IMG/VR virus record: IMGVR_UViG_3300035390_000014
Span: 96,001-160,000 of that record
Origin: a virus
Lineage: Duplodnaviria > Caudoviricetes
Direction: 5' to 3' (one strand)
Length of the DNA stretch: 64,000 nucleotides
Of this stretch, positions 3,793-51,743 are shown piece after piece. The notes below the pieces were generated by a model that was not told where the DNA came from, ran no database searches, and saw only the letters and a program-made list of their open reading frames with translations. Position 1 is the first letter of the stretch. Every line of letters begins with the position of its first letter. The position numbers and the translations under genes were made by a program.

Positions 3793-3863
3793 TAACCATT
3801 CTATATATATTAATATACATATGAAGTATCAATTATTATATTAATTTTATAGGAGATTTTATT

Positions 3864-5402: not shown

Positions 5403-5439
5403 AAAAAAATGTCGTGCTTATATAGGCGACATTTTTTTT
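5403..5439 (+). terminator. intrinsic terminator
   Basis: AAAAAAATGTCG/CGACATTTTTTT inverted repeat plus T-run. Confidence 0.7.
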
Positions 5440-5498
5440 GTCAATTTTTTATACAAATGGAACATAATATAAATGAAATGTATATAGGAGAATTAAAA

Positions 5499-6569
5499 AT
5501 GAGCATCGTAGATAAACTAACCAGTCGAGGTTTAATCACCCCACCCCCACATCTTAAAACTAATATTCACTTTGAAGTTATGATGGGATCAATTGCTTAT
5601 GGTTGTAGTAATGATGCATCTGATTGTGATGTTTATGGTTTTAGTATTCCACCAAAAGATATAATCTTTCCTCATATAAATGGTTACATTATTGGGTTTG
5701 GTAGACAACCTAAAAAATTCGAGCAGTATCAGCAGCACCACATCAAGGATGAAATCCATAACAAAGAATATGATATTACCATTTATAATATCATTAAATA
5801 CTTCCAACTTGTAATGCAAAACAATCCTAATATGATTGATTCTTTATTTGTACCAAGAAGATGTATTTTACATTCAACTCAAGTTGGTGAAAGAGTTAGA
5901 GAAATGAGAAGATTATTTCTAACTAAAAAAGCATGGCATACATTTAAAGGTTATGCTTATTCTCAATTGAATAAATGTAAGAATAAAAGTATTCAACAAT
6001 ATATTGAATTATGTAAAAGAATGGAAATTGATTTTCATATCTCTATGGAAGATTTTGATACTTATAATGAGGAAAATTATGTATCAACAGTCAATAGAGA
6101 ATTATTTAAAGCATTATATTCTAAAGTTCATCAATCAGGTAAAATAACTAAACGATTAGACGTTATTGATAAATTTGGTTATGATGTTAAATTTGCTTAT
6201 CATATTGTAAGACTTTTAAATGAAGTTGAGCAAATTCTGGTTGAACAAGATTTAGACCTAGAACGAAATAGAGAACAATTAAAATCTATTAGACGTGGTG
6301 ATTGGACTCTTCCAGAAATTGAAAATTACTTTGCTGAAAAAGAATTATCATTAGAAAAGTTATATACTTCAAGTACTCTTAGACATTCACCAGATGAAGA
6401 AGGTATTAAAAAACTTCTAATGGAATGTTTAGAGATGCATTATGGTAGTTTAGATGCATGTGTTGTACAACCAGATAAAGCTATTGAGGCTTTAAAATTG
6501 ATTGAAGAAATTTCTGGAGGTATATTAAGAAAGAAAAATGAGTTCCTAATTACAGGAAAGGTTTATTAA
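5499..6569 (+). CDS. pol-beta superfamily nucleotidyltransferase (RlaP/YcgL-like)
   Basis: GSIAYG..SDCDVYG motif, NNPNMIDSLF, KFAYHIVRLL; start moved to ATG 5499 after GGAG RBS. Confidence 0.75.
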   Translation: MSIVDKLTSRGLITPPPHLKTNIHFEVMMGSIAYGCSNDASDCDVYGFSIPPKDIIFPHINGYIIGFGRQPKKFEQYQQHHIKDEIHNKEYDITIYNIIKYFQLVMQNNPNMIDSLFVPRRCILHSTQVGERVREMRRLFLTKKAWHTFKGYAYSQLNKCKNKSIQQYIELCKRMEIDFHISMEDFDTYNEENYVSTVNRELFKALYSKVHQSGKITKRLDVIDKFGYDVKFAYHIVRLLNEVEQILVEQDLDLERNREQLKSIRRGDWTLPEIENYFAEKELSLEKLYTSSTLRHSPDEEGIKKLLMECLEMHYGSLDACVVQPDKAIEALKLIEEISGGILRKKNEFLITGKVY

Positions 6570-13074: not shown

Positions 13075-13464
13075 GGGGATGAAATGGTATCGCTATAGGT
13101 AGGAATTTTATACTGCGCTTCGTGAATGATTGAGTCACGTTAAAATTGATCATGTAAATACAACTGCAGACAATTTCGCAGATGATTACGCACTAGCAAT
13201 AGCAGCGTAATTCGTTCTAGTTAGTTTATATCTTCGGATTAATATAGGGCGTCGACTTAGAAGATTAGAATTATATTGGTTGGACATAAGATAATTCCAT
13301 GTGACTTTATAATTTGAAACTACTACAGAAATTTATCCTTCAACAATGTTGTTTTGTCAATTCCACATATAGTGATTTGTTGAAGTATTAAAAATTGACT
13401 ATAAGCGTAGATGTATTCTTGGAATATACTATATACTCGAGTTCGACTCTCGACATCTCCACCA
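13075..13464 (+). ncRNA. ssrA: tmRNA
   Basis: GGGGATG/CATCTCC acceptor with G3:U70, A73-CCA, T arm CGAG-TTCGACT-CTCG; tag frame 13166-13210 (A)ADNFADDYALAIAA-stop. Confidence 0.93.
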
Positions 13465-19803: not shown

Positions 19804-20568
19804 ATGATTTGTGAATATTGTAAAGAAGAGCATGATGGTGAATATGGATCTGGTAGATTTTGTAACTCTAAATGTGCGAGAGGATTTTCTACTAAAGCTA
19901 AAAGAAAAGATATAAATAAAAATCTTTCTGAAAAAATGAAAGGGTATAAAACTATACCTGGTGGAATGATTAAACTTTGTGATTATGGTTGTGGAAAAGA
20001 AGCGAAATTTGAAATGACTAATGGAAATTGGTGTTGTGAAAACCATTATTCTAAATGTCCATCTATTATTAAAAAGAATTCAATAGCTTTAAAATCTGCT
20101 TATAAAAGTGGTAGAAAATCAAAATTTATTATGCCACAAGAAGCTTTAGATAGATCTTTAGAAACAAGAAAAAATAATCTATGTGAATATTATAATTCTA
20201 TACCATTTGAAAAGAAACCTGATGCTGAAAGACGAAGAATTATTTTAAATGAACAAGATGAAAAATGTTTGATTTGTGGCATTAAGGATTGGAATAATAA
20301 ATCTTTAGTATTACATCTTGATCATATTGATGGTAATAATCAAAATAATAAAAGAGAAAATTTAAGAATTATTTGTCCGAATTGTCATAGTCAAACAGAT
20401 ACATATTGTAGAGGAAAACCAAAAAATATATCAGATAAAAAATTATCTAAATTACTTATAAAAAATAATTTTAATTTTTGTAAAACATTAAATGAAGTAG
20501 ATTTAGTTCCTGGTGGTTATAACTGGGAACGAATTACAAAATTAGCGAATAAGATTATGCCCGCGTAG
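19804..20568 (+). CDS. HNH homing endonuclease
   Basis: LHLDHIDGNNQNN..ENLRIICPNCH; stop lies inside tRNA-Leu. Confidence 0.85.
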   Translation: MICEYCKEEHDGEYGSGRFCNSKCARGFSTKAKRKDINKNLSEKMKGYKTIPGGMIKLCDYGCGKEAKFEMTNGNWCCENHYSKCPSIIKKNSIALKSAYKSGRKSKFIMPQEALDRSLETRKNNLCEYYNSIPFEKKPDAERRRIILNEQDEKCLICGIKDWNNKSLVLHLDHIDGNNQNNKRENLRIICPNCHSQTDTYCRGKPKNISDKKLSKLLIKNNFNFCKTLNEVDLVPGGYNWERITKLANKIMPA

Positions 20569-20645
20569 AAGAATTGGTTTATTCAGCAGACTTAGACCCT
20601 GTGCTTTTAATAGGCGTGTGAGTTCGAATCTCACCGTGGGTACCA
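20559..20645 (+). tRNA. tRNA-Leu(UAG)
   Basis: GCCCGCG/CGTGGGT, loop CTTAGAC, variable arm, A73-CCA. Confidence 0.85.
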
Positions 20646-20651
20646 TATAAT

Positions 20652-20692
20652 AAAAGCGGTTACTTGTATATTATAAGTAACCGCTTTTCTTC
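20652..20692 (+). terminator. intrinsic terminator
   Basis: AAAAGCGGTTACT/AGTAACCGCTTTT. Confidence 0.75.
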
Positions 20693-20770
20693 CATAATTC
20701 CACTCAATTAAAAAATCCCAATCTATATATATTAATATACATAACACAATAGATTATTACTTATTTTAAT

Positions 20771-20856
20771 CAACGTCCGAAAAGGCACGGGACATAGGAG
20801 CTCCCACGCAAAGTCACAGGTCATATTTATATGATGGCTGGTCTACCGAAGCGTCC
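20771..20856 (+). promoter_or_regulatory. c-di-GMP-I (GEMM) riboswitch, copy 1
   Basis: AAGGCAC-GGGA..TCCC-ACGCAAAGTCACAGGTC..GATGGCTGGTCTACCGAA matches the recalled GEMM core. Confidence 0.8.
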
Positions 20857-20875
20857 TTACTGGGAGGATGTTTTA

Positions 20876-21376
20876 ATGAAACGAATGCTAATTTTATTAG
20901 TGTTTATGATCTTATCAACTGGATGTGCAATAAAACCTGTTTATCAAGTGAATGGCTATCCAGTCCCTAATAATGTCATTAAGGCAAAAACATTTGCTTT
21001 AGATTTAACAATAACTTATAATTTACAAAAAACCTTTAATGTAAAAGAAGGCAAAGAATCATATCAAACTTATGATTTTCTACCTTTGACTGATTCAACA
21101 ATATTTAAAATTAAGGATGATGAAAAATTAATTTTTAATATTGATGTTTTCAATCCATTAAAGAAATACTATAAGTTAGTTCAATATACAACTATAGAAG
21201 GAGGTGGTGGAGATGAAGTAGTATTGTACGAAGGTGAATTAAGCAGAAAACATGTATCTGTACATTTACCATTGATCCCAACCAAGTTGGTTAGTTTTTA
21301 TTATGATGCATGTAGTAAAAACGATGACTTGGTTTTTAGGTCCTTTCAAAATCAGTATATTTTCTCTGAATATTGA
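20876..21376 (+). CDS. lipoprotein
   Basis: MKRMLILLVFMILSTG-C lipobox; GGGAGG RBS. Confidence 0.75.
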   Translation: MKRMLILLVFMILSTGCAIKPVYQVNGYPVPNNVIKAKTFALDLTITYNLQKTFNVKEGKESYQTYDFLPLTDSTIFKIKDDEKLIFNIDVFNPLKKYYKLVQYTTIEGGGGDEVVLYEGELSRKHVSVHLPLIPTKLVSFYYDACSKNDDLVFRSFQNQYIFSEY

Positions 21377-21396
21377 AGGATGAATTTTTTATACGT

Positions 21397-21490
21397 GAAC
21401 GAACGAAAAAGGCACGGGATCACGTGGTCCCACGCAAAGTCACAGGTCTTTTATAAAGGATAAAAGATGGCTGGTCTACCGAAAACGTTC
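21397..21490 (+). promoter_or_regulatory. c-di-GMP-I (GEMM) riboswitch, copy 2
   Basis: Same core; P1 GAACG/CGTTC; P2 and P3 loops differ from copy 1. Confidence 0.8.
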
Positions 21491-21522
21491 TAATTAATTT
21501 TATTTAATTAGGAGTTTTCAAG

Positions 21523-22482
21523 ATGAAAAAAATGTTTAAAAGTTTAGTTATTGGTTTGGCAATTGTTGGTCTGATCGCATCCACAGGTTATGCACGCGGT
21601 GGTTATAATGAAAGCGTTGTAGGCGGCGGCGATATTCAGTTTAACGGTGCTACAATTCCCAATGGAGCTGCTGGCGGTATTTCAGGATCTGGCGGTTTTA
21701 GTGCTGCCCAGTCTGCTGGCGGTGGTTGGGGTCGTGTTGGTGGTGATATTTCCATTGCTGCTGGTGGTGTAACTGATACTACTTCAGGTACATATGTTAA
21801 TAACCACAGAGGTTATACTGAGATTGGTGTTTATAGTCGAAGTGAAAACCTTGCAACCACAAATGGTTTTACCACTATTAATGGTCAGGGTGCTGTAGTA
21901 GCTGAAAGTACTATGATCGGTGGTGCTGCTGAGGGAACATTGAATGGTTCTGTAATTGGGAAATCTCCAAGGTTCTTTACTACTGATGGTGTTAGTGGTG
22001 GAGTTGCTGGTCAGGGTGCTGTAGGTGGATTTGTTGGAGTTTCTGGTCTTGCTCTTGAAGGCGATGTTTCCATGAGAGCTAATCTAGAGTTCTCTGGATC
22101 TTCTTATTCAGATTCTTTTAGATTTGTAGAACGTGATCGCCAAAACGGAACTAAAACAGAAGGTATGGGCACTTATGTTGGAGCCAATACTAATGTTAGA
22201 ACTGATGGTTGGGTAGATCCCAATGGTTTTGTTGAAGGTGGTTTTGTTGCAGCCGGTGGAGCAGCATCTAAAACAGTTCAGAAAAGTGATACTGGATTTG
22301 CCAAAGCTTCTACAGTTGGTACTTATTCAGGTTCAGGTTCTTTAGGTGATAATTATACTGGAAAAGCTAATGGTTATACCAAAACTAGCATTACTCAGTA
22401 TAGAGGTATGACTGGAAGCATCGTTACATCTTCAGCTGGAATGCATGTTGTTTCTACAACATCTCCTGTTCAACATAATTAA
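21523..22482 (+). CDS. secreted Gly/Ala/Ser-rich protein
   Basis: Signal peptide (..TGYA), low-complexity beta-rich body. Confidence 0.7.
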   Translation: MKKMFKSLVIGLAIVGLIASTGYARGGYNESVVGGGDIQFNGATIPNGAAGGISGSGGFSAAQSAGGGWGRVGGDISIAAGGVTDTTSGTYVNNHRGYTEIGVYSRSENLATTNGFTTINGQGAVVAESTMIGGAAEGTLNGSVIGKSPRFFTTDGVSGGVAGQGAVGGFVGVSGLALEGDVSMRANLEFSGSSYSDSFRFVERDRQNGTKTEGMGTYVGANTNVRTDGWVDPNGFVEGGFVAAGGAASKTVQKSDTGFAKASTVGTYSGSGSLGDNYTGKANGYTKTSITQYRGMTGSIVTSSAGMHVVSTTSPVQHN

Positions 22483-22563
22483 ATTACCAATTAACTAAAC
22501 ATCATACCCCCAAGCTTAGATAGTTGGGGGTATAAAATTTGAATTAAACGTAAGAGAATAAAA

Positions 22564-23406
22564 TTGAAAATTTATAAATTTGCATTACTTAGTATTATGA
22601 GTATGTTGATTATGGTGATGTTCACAGTCCCGTCATTTGCTGGTGCGGATGCGGATGCTGATGCTAAAGCTAAAGCTGGTGCAACATCATCCATTGATTC
22701 TCATGATAATATTACCAATCAACGTGGTTATGCCATTCAGGGTCAGGTACAGTACCCCGGAATGCCCGGATACTTTGGTCCCAATAACAAACCCGGTCAT
22801 CAGTTCATTTCCCTTAATAAATTGTTGATGTATAACACAGCTTGGAACATTAAAGCTGAATACGGTTCTACAACCGGCCAGACAATCAATATAACTCCCC
22901 ATGCCAAAATGGTTACCCCGGAAGAAAGAAGTAAAGTTGTCATCTGCACCAAGGATATCTTTGACAAGACCAAATTTGAAATTGATCTCCTTGCAGTCGG
23001 TGCCATTAATTCAACCCAGAAAAATGTTATTTCTTCTGACTTGTTGGATTATGTTTTAGCAACGGCAGCCAAATATGGCGCCACCCATGTCCAGTTTCTG
23101 GCTGAGGGTACTAACACTGAACTCCAGTCTTCTGGTTGGGGTATTGGTCTTAATTATACCAAAGCTACAGATACATCAGTATCAACTGGCGGCACCGGGT
23201 TCTCAACTGGATGGTCCGGTTATCAGAATCTACCCTGGCAGCAATTCTTCTTTTTGAAGGTTGTTAATCCTGGAGCAGTTGCTTCAATTACACCTGATAT
23301 TGAAAAAGCAGATGTTGTTGAAAACGACGTAATTGTAAAAGATAATACCAAAGTAGATAATGCTGTGAAAGAAGCCTCTACAAAACAGGGTGGAAATCAC
23401 AACTAA
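22564..23406 (+). CDS. secreted protein
   Basis: Signal peptide (..PSFA), ADADADAKAKA repeat. Confidence 0.7.
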   Translation: MKIYKFALLSIMSMLIMVMFTVPSFAGADADADAKAKAGATSSIDSHDNITNQRGYAIQGQVQYPGMPGYFGPNNKPGHQFISLNKLLMYNTAWNIKAEYGSTTGQTINITPHAKMVTPEERSKVVICTKDIFDKTKFEIDLLAVGAINSTQKNVISSDLLDYVLATAAKYGATHVQFLAEGTNTELQSSGWGIGLNYTKATDTSVSTGGTGFSTGWSGYQNLPWQQFFFLKVVNPGAVASITPDIEKADVVENDVIVKDNTKVDNAVKEASTKQGGNHN

Positions 23407-23441
23407 GAATTAAAATTGAGTTAAGTTTATTTAGTGAGTTT

Positions 23442-23481
23442 AAAAAATGAGTCGTCAAGTTATTAGGCGACTCATTTTTTT
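23442..23481 (+). terminator. intrinsic terminator
   Basis: AAAAAATGAGTCG/CGACTCATTTTTT. Confidence 0.75.
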
Positions 23482-23598
23482 GTCATTTTTTTATGAGTAT
23501 AAAACTTGAAGTCCCCTACTGCTAGTTGATTTCTCTAAGCTATTGAACATATTATAAATACTAGTTATTGTATGTTAATTCTTTAATAGAGAGGTTAT

Positions 23599-24949: not shown

Positions 24950-25879
24950 ATGAAAATTTTAATTACTGGTGGTGCTGGATTTGCAGGATGTGGTATTGTT
25001 AAAAGATTTTTGAAATTAAATCATGAAGTAACTGTTATAGATATAGTTCCAAAATCACATTCAAATTTACATAATGTTAACGATCATAATTTTTCATATA
25101 TATGGAAATCTGTACATGATGTTAATAAAGAAGATATTAAAGATAAAGAGATTATAATACATTTAGCTGCTCAGGCTGATGTTCCTATGGCATTTGGATC
25201 ACCAAGATGGACTTCATTTCAAAACATTGATGGTTTGTTAGCTATGTTAGAAGTTTGTCGTGGGGAAAAACATATTAAAAAATTTGTAGTAGCTTCATCT
25301 GGTAATGTATTTGGAAGATATAAATATATACCAATAGATGAAAAACATCAATACATGCCACATAATCCATATGCATTTTCTAAAGCTTCTCAAGAGTTAG
25401 CAGCCATGAGTTATTATAGATGTTATAATATACCTATAATTATTTTAGCAACAGGTGTAGTAGCTGGTCCATATATGAGAAAAGAAGTTTTTATTTATAA
25501 ATGGTTATATAATATCCTTACAAATAAACCAACTTATTTAGAAGGTGGGTCCCAAACAAGAGATTTAACATATGTAACAGATACTATAGATGTTTTTAAT
25601 TTAGCTATAGAGGCTCCTGATGAAAAAGTTATTGGCGAAAAATTCTTAATATCATATGGAGAAGAAAATTCAGTTAAGGATCTTCTTGATATGTGTTATA
25701 GTGTTACTGGAGATAAACCAAATATTATTCATACAGATTTCAGACCAGGAGAAGAAGGACAAAGAGAATATTTTGATAATACAAAAGCTAGAAAAATATT
25801 AGGATATACTCCAAAAGTTGATCCACTAGAAACAATTGGGAATATAGCTAATTGGATAAAAAATATAATACTTAAATAA
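24950..25879 (+). CDS. NAD-dependent nucleotide-sugar epimerase/dehydratase
   Basis: ITGGAGFAG, HLAAQ, YAFSK, RDLTYV. Confidence 0.88.
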   Translation: MKILITGGAGFAGCGIVKRFLKLNHEVTVIDIVPKSHSNLHNVNDHNFSYIWKSVHDVNKEDIKDKEIIIHLAAQADVPMAFGSPRWTSFQNIDGLLAMLEVCRGEKHIKKFVVASSGNVFGRYKYIPIDEKHQYMPHNPYAFSKASQELAAMSYYRCYNIPIIILATGVVAGPYMRKEVFIYKWLYNILTNKPTYLEGGSQTRDLTYVTDTIDVFNLAIEAPDEKVIGEKFLISYGEENSVKDLLDMCYSVTGDKPNIIHTDFRPGEEGQREYFDNTKARKILGYTPKVDPLETIGNIANWIKNIILK

Positions 25880-41402: not shown

Positions 41403-41464
41403 TTATTAATTCATTATAAAAAACAATTATTATATATATTAATAACTATAATGCAACACATTAA

Positions 41465-41618
41465 TTTGTATTTTATAAAAGGTTAAGAACGGAAAGATTA
41501 TACATAAAATAACTCAGGTGGTAGAGTATTTGCCTCAAAAGCAAACTGTCGTTGGTTCAATTCCAACTTTTAACAAAACCTAATCTTTTATATTACTTAA
41601 CCTTTTATAAGATACAAA
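41465..41618 (+). ncRNA. Y-RNA-like unit 1 (tRNA body joined at the acceptor end)
   Basis: 23-bp terminal IR, GAACG/ATTACT internal loop; D arm, TTTGC-CTCAAAA-GCAAA, T arm GTTGG-TTCAATT-CCAAC. Confidence 0.8.
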
Positions 41619-51667: not shown

Positions 51668-51743
51668 GCCGGTGTAGCTTATTGGGAGAGCCGAGAACTC
51701 TAAATTCTTGATTGAGTAAGTTCGATCCTTACCATCGGCACCA
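51668..51743 (+). tRNA. amber suppressor tRNA (CUA)
   Basis: GCCGGTG/CATCGGC, GAGAA-CTCTAAA-TTCTT, canonical D and T arms, A73-CCA. Confidence 0.88.

Follow-up and report, generated by a model that had tools for sequence, protein, structure and literature searches.

Two RNA elements that resemble riboswitches for the bacterial signal cyclic di-GMP (c-di-GMP) lie in front of genes for exported proteins in an uncultured jumbo phage, and the question that this locus raises is what a phage would do with them. The locus was found in a 64,000-nucleotide stretch (hereafter the window) that comprises bases 96001-160000 of the linear IMG/VR virus record IMGVR_UViG_3300035390_000014, which is 202,719 bp long and ~65% complete according to CheckV. 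The elements, aptamer 1 and aptamer 2, share one compact unit with three genes, here called open reading frame (ORF) 1, ORF2 and ORF3 or, together, the triad. We propose that both are functional c-di-GMP-I riboswitches of type 2 within a single phage unit, that they are ON switches and that they feed a triad of envelope proteins; we put the probability of this reading at roughly three in four.

Identity of the two aptamers

Both elements were recovered with RF01051, the Rfam model of the c-di-GMP-I (GEMM-I) class, which has a gathering score of 35 bits. Aptamer 2 matches at 21401-21483 with 39.1 bits in an Rfam scan of the window, above the gathering score, while aptamer 1 matches at 20774-20850 with 31.9 bits (E 1.7e-5) in a search of the full record, below it. 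These are the only two RF01051 matches in the 202,719 bp. A preliminary description, made from the letters of the window, had outlined two diverged GEMM-like aptamers at 20771-20856 and 21397-21490, and the limits derived here from P1 to P1 (Table 1) match that outline. Aptamer 1 is a close paralogue of aptamer 2, the two having in common an unusual core, CACGGGA...UCCCACGCAAAGUCACAGGUC...GAUGGCUGGUCUACCGAA. The closest relative of the locus, L038, in which ORF1 is 83% identical, carries both aptamers, and its orthologue of aptamer 1 (L038:5897-5974) passes the gathering score with 40.5 bits. Membership of the c-di-GMP-I class is thus confirmed, for aptamer 2 by the Rfam criterion and for aptamer 1 through its orthologue and its paralogy.

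Type 1 members of GEMM-I have a GNRA loop on P2 that docks in a receptor in P3. The P2 loops of aptamers 1 and 2 read CAUAGGAGC and ACGU, so that P2 indeed lacks a GNRA tetraloop, as the preliminary description had noted, and the tetraloop-receptor columns of the RF01051 model are deleted in both. Type 1 was rejected on these grounds, and the window aptamers are assigned to type 2.

The aptamer fold is held in common with the relatives. Orthologues of aptamer 2 score 44.5 bits in L039 and 28.2 bits in L005, and the one in L038 falls short of the gathering score. With only the junction bases held unpaired, the P1/P2/P3 fold is reached by seven of the eight aptamers. RNAalifold on six aptamers gives 16 pairs, none of them broken in any sequence and four with double compensatory changes. 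P1 itself varies yet stays paired, reading GAACG/CGUUC in the window and L038, GAAGU/ACUUC in L005 and AGAGAG/CUCUCU in L014.

The ligand of both aptamers is inferred from three junction positions to be c-di-GMP. We take the relevant model columns to correspond to G20, A47 and C92 in the numbering of the solved Vc2 structure, and this trio to be the canonical set for c-di-GMP. The G20 equivalent is G in both aptamers (AAG-G-CA) by the RF01051 alignment, which bears out the G that had been read from AAGGCA by eye and taken to favour c-di-GMP over cyclic GMP-AMP (cGAMP). The model alignments likewise place A at the A47 equivalent (ACGC-A-AAG) and C at the C92 equivalent (UA-C-CG) in both copies. 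Because these positions hold G, A and C, c-di-GMP is favoured over cGAMP and over the GGC variant.

The alternative, that one or both aptamers sense 3'3'-cGAMP, pGpG or a defence cyclic nucleotide, so that an immune or other signal is read, seems highly improbable. Specificity variants of GEMM-I do exist, namely GEMM-Ib (cGAMP) and the Rfam variants GGC and UAU, and type 2 aptamers are less studied. GEMM-Ib was rejected here: these 3'3'-cGAMP riboswitches have A at the G20 equivalent, and both aptamers have G. The GGC model (RF03167, c-di-GMP-I-GGC; gathering score 59 bits) competes with RF01051 in the ranking by E-value, but its 34.9 and 30.1 bits lie far under its gathering score, and RF01051 gives the higher bit scores. 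This variant, too, was rejected, as its diagnostic G is an A in the window; the A47 region reads ACGCAAAG in the window aptamers against ACGCGAAg in the RF03167 consensus. In L039 a G replaces the A just before the C92 equivalent, which could speak for another ligand. Against this stand the G rather than A at position 20, the A rather than G at position 47 and the retained C92 of the window aptamers.

Expression platforms and predicted direction of switching

Each aptamer is followed by a hairpin that contains the Shine-Dalgarno (SD) sequence of the next gene (Table 1). For aptamer 2, the SD sequence AGGAG sits 8 nt before the ATG of ORF2, and AAAACGUUCUAAUUAA, which contains the 3' strand of P1 (CGUUC), pairs with UUAAUUAGGAGUUUU in both the minimum-energy and the centroid fold. 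The leader folds with z = -3.6. The pairing probability of the SD sequence is 0.98 in the free ensemble against 0.33 with P1 enforced, at a cost of 7.7 kcal/mol, an amount that tight ligand binding can supply. For aptamer 1, GCGUCCUU pairs with GGGAGGAUGU, followed by UUUU (UUUUAAU). This hairpin is again present in both the minimum-energy and the centroid fold, is kept in L038 and is shortened to 4 bp when P1 is enforced.

The same logic of P1 and anti-SD strand is found in the leaders of L038, L039 and L005, and L005 shows joint changes in P1 and in the anti-SD strand. Across leaders of the aptamer 2 type, the SD sequence is paired with a probability of 0.98-0.99, falling to 0.33-0.66 with P1 enforced, for 4-8 kcal/mol. 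Since the 3' strand of P1 has the SD sequence as a second pairing partner, ligand binding should free the ribosome site, and the elements are therefore predicted to be ON switches. From these folds we infer that each switch in the window is ON at high c-di-GMP and probably acts by exposing the ribosome site in front of an exported-protein gene. L006 appears to reach the ON direction by another route: a type 1 aptamer (GUGA loop; RF03167 51.2 bits) stands ahead of its ORF1, and the 3' strand of P1 is at the same time the 5' arm of a strong terminator.

It is conceivable that the aptamers are real but work as OFF switches or mainly by transcription termination. The aptamer 1 hairpin runs into UUUUAAU, the terminator platform in L006 is clear, and the class has both ON (Vc1) and OFF (Vc2) members. 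The direction is ambiguous in L014, whose minimum-energy fold includes P1 and, after it, a weak hairpin with a U run. On the other side, one strand is shared by P1 and the hairpin in every leader examined, so a stable P1 would mean ON whether the ribosome or the polymerase is blocked. The aptamer 2 hairpin, moreover, has the SD sequence inside it and no U tract after it. We consider OFF switching or predominant termination quite improbable.

Several points weigh against two working ON switches, and some of them concern aptamer 1. It lies under the Rfam gathering score (31.9 vs 35 bits), its P3 contains a U-U mismatch, and without constraints its minimum-energy structure is one other than the aptamer. 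The pairing of its SD sequence drops only from 0.71 to 0.53 with P1 enforced, so its switching may be weak or may act via termination. The switching logic as a whole rests on thermodynamic folding, not on kinetics. No aptamer was found in the searched triad or ORF3 loci L003, L004, L007/8, L009, L011-L013 and L041-L043, or in the eleven metagenome loci L016, L017, L021, L025, L026, L029-L032, L034 and L035. Lastly, as the record is only ~65% complete, c-di-GMP enzymes of the phage's own could sit in the missing part.

The doubts about aptamer 1 could be taken to mean that it is a decaying, functionless duplicate and that aptamer 2 alone works. Its low score, its mismatch, its alternative minimum-energy fold and its weak predicted effect on the SD sequence all fit such decay, as does the lack of an aptamer at that position in L039, where none precedes ORF1, and in L040. 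The orthologue in L038 tells against it, with its 40.5 bits, with U-A where the window has the U-U of P3, with U-A where the window has a U-G in P1, and with the whole SD hairpin kept. This pattern makes aptamer 1 fit purifying selection and not decay, which we accordingly hold to be improbable. The aptamer 1 type is confined at this position to the window and L038 and repeats the peculiarities of aptamer 2, so it looks like the product of a duplication within the operon.

Proposed mechanism

Two ON switches in one phage unit would work as follows. Transcription would start at a promoter-like motif and run through aptamer 1, ORF1, aptamer 2, ORF2, a hairpin and ORF3 to a terminator. Without ligand, the hairpin downstream of each aptamer would hide the ribosome-binding site, and that of aptamer 1 may also terminate transcription. 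Binding of host c-di-GMP would lock P1 and block the hairpin, and translation of ORF1 and ORF2 would rise. The triad, composed of a lipoprotein, a Gly-rich beta protein and an exported protein with a small domain, would then go to the envelope of the infected cell. The 203-kb record contains no GGDEF, EAL, HD-GYP-type HD_5 or PilZ domain and no c-di-GMP-II element. As it thus encodes no protein that makes, degrades or binds c-di-GMP, the phage appears to read the pool of its host.

If the switches work as predicted, a giant phage of virulent type tunes envelope cargo to the sessile-or-motile signal of its host, and there is a direct, protein-free link from bacterial lifestyle signalling to phage gene expression. 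The layout with two switches would also be a clean system for translational control, cistron by cistron, in one mRNA.

Architecture of the unit

Table 1. Features of the riboswitch unit and its upstream border (positions in the window)
Feature	Position	Strand	Description
tRNA-Leu(UAG)	20559-20645		Precedes the terminator at 20652-20692
Terminator hairpin	20652-20692	+	Closes the tRNA-Leu(UAG) unit; stem AAAAGCGGUUACUU / AAGUAACCGCUUUU, U-rich tail; read from the sequence
Promoter-like motif (motif B)	20723-20744	+	CTATATATATTAATATACATAA; likely start of the unit, putative promoter
Aptamer 1, c-di-GMP-I type 2	20773-20854 (P1 to P1)	+	RF01051 31.9 bits; RF03167 30.1 bits; orthologue in L038
Sequestrator hairpin of aptamer 1, possibly a terminator	20848-20874	+	P1 3' strand (GCGUCC) plus UU pairs with SD GGGAGGA (20862-20868), then UUUU
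ORF1	20876-21376	+	Predicted lipoprotein, 166 aa; first triad member
Aptamer 2, c-di-GMP-I type 2	21397-21490 (P1 to P1)	+	Between ORF1 and ORF2; RF01051 39.1 bits
Sequestrator hairpin of aptamer 2	21481-21519	+	AAAACGUUCUAAUUAA (including P1 3' strand) pairs with UUAAUUAGGAGUUUU (including SD AGGAG, 21510-21514)
ORF2	21523-22482	+	Predicted exported protein, 319 aa; second triad member
Hairpin between ORF2 and ORF3	22504-22533	+	10 bp, AUACCCCCAA / UUGGGGGUAU; no U tract; read from the sequence
ORF3	22564-23406	+	Predicted exported protein, 280 aa, TTG start; third triad member
Intrinsic terminator	23442-23482	+	Ends the unit; strong stem AAAAAAUGAGUCG / CGACUCAUUUUUU; read from the sequence

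The unit has the outline that the preliminary description gave it, with a start at motif B and a terminator on either side (Table 1). Both terminators are absent from a simple terminator scan and appear only as spurious hairpin matches in the RNA-model search. Motif B has six exact intergenic copies on the + strand of the window (TATATATATTAATATACATAA), starting at 3802, 18702, 20724, 38040, 41431 and 47684, and matches with at most two mismatches number 32 against 10.3 expected. L038 and L040 have it at the equivalent place, and it probably represents a class of promoter used by this phage group. The copy at 41431 lies just ahead of a Y-RNA-like array at 41465.

Within the unit, motif B stands upstream of aptamer 1 only. 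Aptamer 2 begins twenty bases past ORF1, and since no promoter motif precedes it, it most likely lies inside the mRNA. A tandem riboswitch in a single leader was rejected as a description of the pair, as the aptamers are parted by the 501-nt ORF1 and have an SD hairpin each. A longer, 181-aa call of ORF1 starting at 20831 was also rejected: it runs through aptamer 1, and the homologues start at the Met of MKR..., at 20876. Attenuation and stabilisation are possible roles of the hairpin between ORF2 and ORF3.

The preliminary description had further called the cassette visibly more GC-rich than its flanks. This is true of ORF2 and ORF3 (0.39-0.46 against 0.27-0.30) and not of ORF1 (0.25-0.29), and it fails as evidence of foreign origin. 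ORF2 has a GC content of 0.18 at third codon positions (GC3), where the background is 0.16 +/- 0.06, and its excess lies in codon positions 1 and 2 (Gly, Ala, Ser, Thr). ORF3 alone has a raised GC3 (0.35, z ~3), and ORF1 and ORF2 are phage-like in this respect. The Ile codon ATA makes up 0 and 0.05 in ORF2 and ORF3 against 0.36, and CAG is used over CAA at 0.75-0.85 against 0.19 in the rest of the window, a bias for which selection for expression and a different origin are both possible causes. Relatives share the neighbours of the triad, with RF-1-like and aldolase-II-like genes upstream and an exonuclease gene downstream. A GC-rich foreign island was rejected on GC3 and on this synteny, and taken together the sequence features point to a long-standing phage module rather than a fresh insert from a host.

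The exported proteins of the triad

That a lipoprotein follows aptamer 1 and two proteins with signal peptides follow aptamer 2, as initially described, agrees with the lipobox of ORF1 and the N-terminal signal peptides of ORF2 and ORF3. The lipobox reads LSTG before the Cys, and this Cys is found in 13 of the 14 homologues, among them those from L004, which looks bacterial, and from the distant L014; the fourteenth is a truncated gene call. No family for ORF1, ORF2 or ORF3 was found in Pfam, PHROGs, NCBIfam or PADLOC, and alignment profiles of ORF2 and ORF3 gave nothing meaningful among the sequences of the PDB.

ORF2 has 20% Gly, a predicted signal peptide and 31 homologues. Its AlphaFold2 model (predicted local distance difference test score, pLDDT, 90.3) is an all-beta meander of about a dozen long antiparallel strands. 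Structure matches are mostly to outer-membrane barrels and to pore-forming or pore-toxin hairpins and are weak (Z <=7.0 with high root-mean-square deviation; Foldseek template-modelling score <=0.2). One clearly hydrophobic face is present in only 22 of 281 ten-residue windows, with no regular hydrophobic belt.

The TTG start of ORF3 is supported by the alignment of its homologues, of which there are 44 at 90% clustering; a profile search gives 339 clusters at 50% identity. The core of its model (residues 80-235) weakly resembles small envelope proteins with folds of the FvfA, RcsF and YdgH/BhsA type. VIA-align gives Z 7.7 for FvfA (5evg) and Z 7.0 for RcsF (2y1b), in a range that the tool calls common, and the best Foldseek E is 0.019. 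Feature matches in the ESM Atlas were all below 0.9 and serve as leads only, HfaD (0.76) being one example. In a complex prediction of ORF2 with ORF1 and ORF3 the control scored above the test, which makes it uninformative on binding.

Structure prediction, which the preliminary description had proposed for the three proteins, thus yielded an all-beta model for ORF2 and a modelled core for ORF3, with fold matches that stay weak. The suggestion that the phage senses a host biofilm signal to express surface or matrix proteins stands in part: the aptamers do precede genes for exported proteins and their platforms point to activation. The identity as surface or matrix proteins did not find the same backing, with no family match and only weak fold matches. 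Our best guess is that the triad serves in surface masking (superinfection exclusion) or in adhesion, in dense, sessile hosts. The riboswitch gives a functional handle on three co-inherited, unannotated families, whose products are presumably wanted at high c-di-GMP.

Distribution of the triad and its aptamers

The three genes occur together and in the same order in the phage-like contigs L003, L005, L006, L007/8, L014, L031 and L041. They are also found in the bacterial-looking contig L004, alongside histidine kinase, Laminin_G_3, transglutaminase and caspase genes. Among 50,697 deposited phage genomes, neither tblastn with ORF3 nor megablast with the region gave a match, and no relative turned up in 185,579 species genomes when these were scanned by pattern and by tblastn from the ORF3 alignment. 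A scan of IMG/VR with the ORF3 alignment returned only six distant relatives (27-30% identity).

Aptamers of the c-di-GMP-I class stand beside the triad in six of ~25 examined loci: the window, L038, L039, L005, L006 and L014. L014 is a 223-kb IMG/VR phage whose ORF3 is ~30% identical. Its aptamer (L014:5265-5347) is of type 1 with a GCAA loop, scores 61.7 bits with RF01051 and 65.2 bits with RF03167, and lies directly after the triad, ahead of a gene for a PfkB-family sugar kinase (5405-6322). Where aptamer 2 would be, L003 and L007 have a terminator hairpin, ahead of the same UUAGGAGUUUU ribosome site. As most triad-bearing loci have no aptamer, the riboswitch appears to be an optional add-on to the triad.

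The differences in loop type and platform suggest more than one recruitment, which a tree would be needed to show. A broader reading is that the triad is an undescribed module that remodels the envelope, for instance by receptor masking or as an adhesin, that large sediment phages use it only in hosts high in c-di-GMP (sessile and dense), and that c-di-GMP sensing was recruited to it more than once. Repeated recruitment is suggested in this reading by three arrangements: aptamers of type 2 that occur as an intra-operon duplicate with SD platforms, the terminator-coupled type 1 element of L006, and the type 1 element that stands ahead of the PfkB gene in L014. We offer the broader reading tentatively and think it doubtful.

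Nucleotide-sugar genes recur beside the triad in several relatives, encoding an epimerase/dehydratase, an HldE-like PfkB with a cytidylyltransferase, and a PfkB kinase. Such genes lie at 24950-25879 in the window, at L038:1109-2512 and on one 6254-bp Logan contig. These neighbours hint at a wider surface-glycan neighbourhood.

Comparison with known systems

The phage aptamers have the same three-helix architecture and the same G20, A47 and C92 junction nucleotides as Vc1 (gbpA leader) and Vc2 (tfoY leader) of Vibrio cholerae, and they resemble Vc1 as predicted ON switches of genes for exported proteins. Unlike Vc1 and Vc2, they are of type 2, they occur as two copies in one operon, and their P1 doubles as the anti-SD strand.

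PhiCD119 is small and temperate, infects the Gram-positive Clostridioides difficile and carries a single c-di-GMP-I aptamer on its genome. The present carrier differs in being a jumbo phage with tRNAs and transfer-messenger RNA (tmRNA), in having two aptamers and in a cargo suited to a lipoprotein-bearing envelope. The earlier remark that such riboswitches are rare in phages holds, without their being unprecedented: a review counts the PhiCD119 riboswitch as one of the "few cyclic di-GMP elements" that phages carry (PMC10333796). Literature searches on riboswitches in jumbo phages or in viral metagenomes brought up nothing about c-di-GMP switching in large phages. A strict pattern of the type 1 GEMM-I core, whose count is a lower bound and not a census, occurs in 45 contigs among 2.9 million in IMG/VR; ~20 of these are one repeated coding sequence, and only six, the convincing candidates, form a P2 hairpin capped by a GAAA loop. 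An exact scan of IMG/VR for the family-specific aptamer core found none. In six smaller IMG/VR contigs (L059, L067, L071, L079, L084 and L088), of which L067, L071 and L088 are near-identical, a canonical GEMM-I core of type 1 is combined with a GAAA loop and receptor-like sequence.

More than one c-di-GMP-I aptamer on a transcription unit is also a feature of Bacillota, where, according to one article, contiguous (tandem) riboswitches of this class stand before yebA-type transglutaminase-like genes, among others (PMC12452182). Those tandems are arranged head to tail in one 5' leader, whereas the phage pair is ~540 nt apart, is split by ORF1 and has its own SD platform for each cistron. What sets the present case apart is the unusual layout of two switches in one operon and its unannotated cargo; the phage-borne c-di-GMP-I aptamer itself has a precedent in PhiCD119.

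Receptor-masking lipoproteins of phages include Llp of T5 and Cor of phi80 and HK022. The likeness to ORF1 is a functional analogy only, in that a phage-encoded lipoprotein is sent to the envelope of the infected cell. Unlike Llp and Cor, the cargo described here consists of three co-inherited proteins under riboswitch control.

Genomic setting of the locus

The window has ~29% GC and holds 26 tRNA genes and a tmRNA gene, and the genome of its carrier is estimated at ~300 kb. In a search of sequencing runs, the DNA of the window was contained in DNA runs of sediment metagenomes only and was not found in any RNA run. The flanks of the aptamer and triad unit are phage-like, with an HNH endonuclease gene and a phrog_704 exonuclease gene. 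The HNH endonuclease gene (19804-20568) overlaps the 5' end of tRNA-Leu(UAG) by 10 nt and looks like a mobile insertion, as it is absent at the equivalent place in L038.

Some further elements were noted in the window and its relatives. The tmRNA gene of the phage lies at 13075-13464 and encodes the tag peptide ADNFADDYALAIAA; weak tRNA-Sec matches stand beside the tmRNA of related phages (L003:508-594 and L007:301-387; 28.3 bits against a gathering score of 47). At 51668-51743 lies a tRNA whose anticodon is CUA; ARAGORN calls it Pyl, and it may act as an amber suppressor. Finally, L042, a 285-kb phage-like contig with an ORF3 homologue, carries a HEARO RNA (L042:7098-7313; 123.5 bits) beside RRXRR/HNH and OrfB_IS605 genes.

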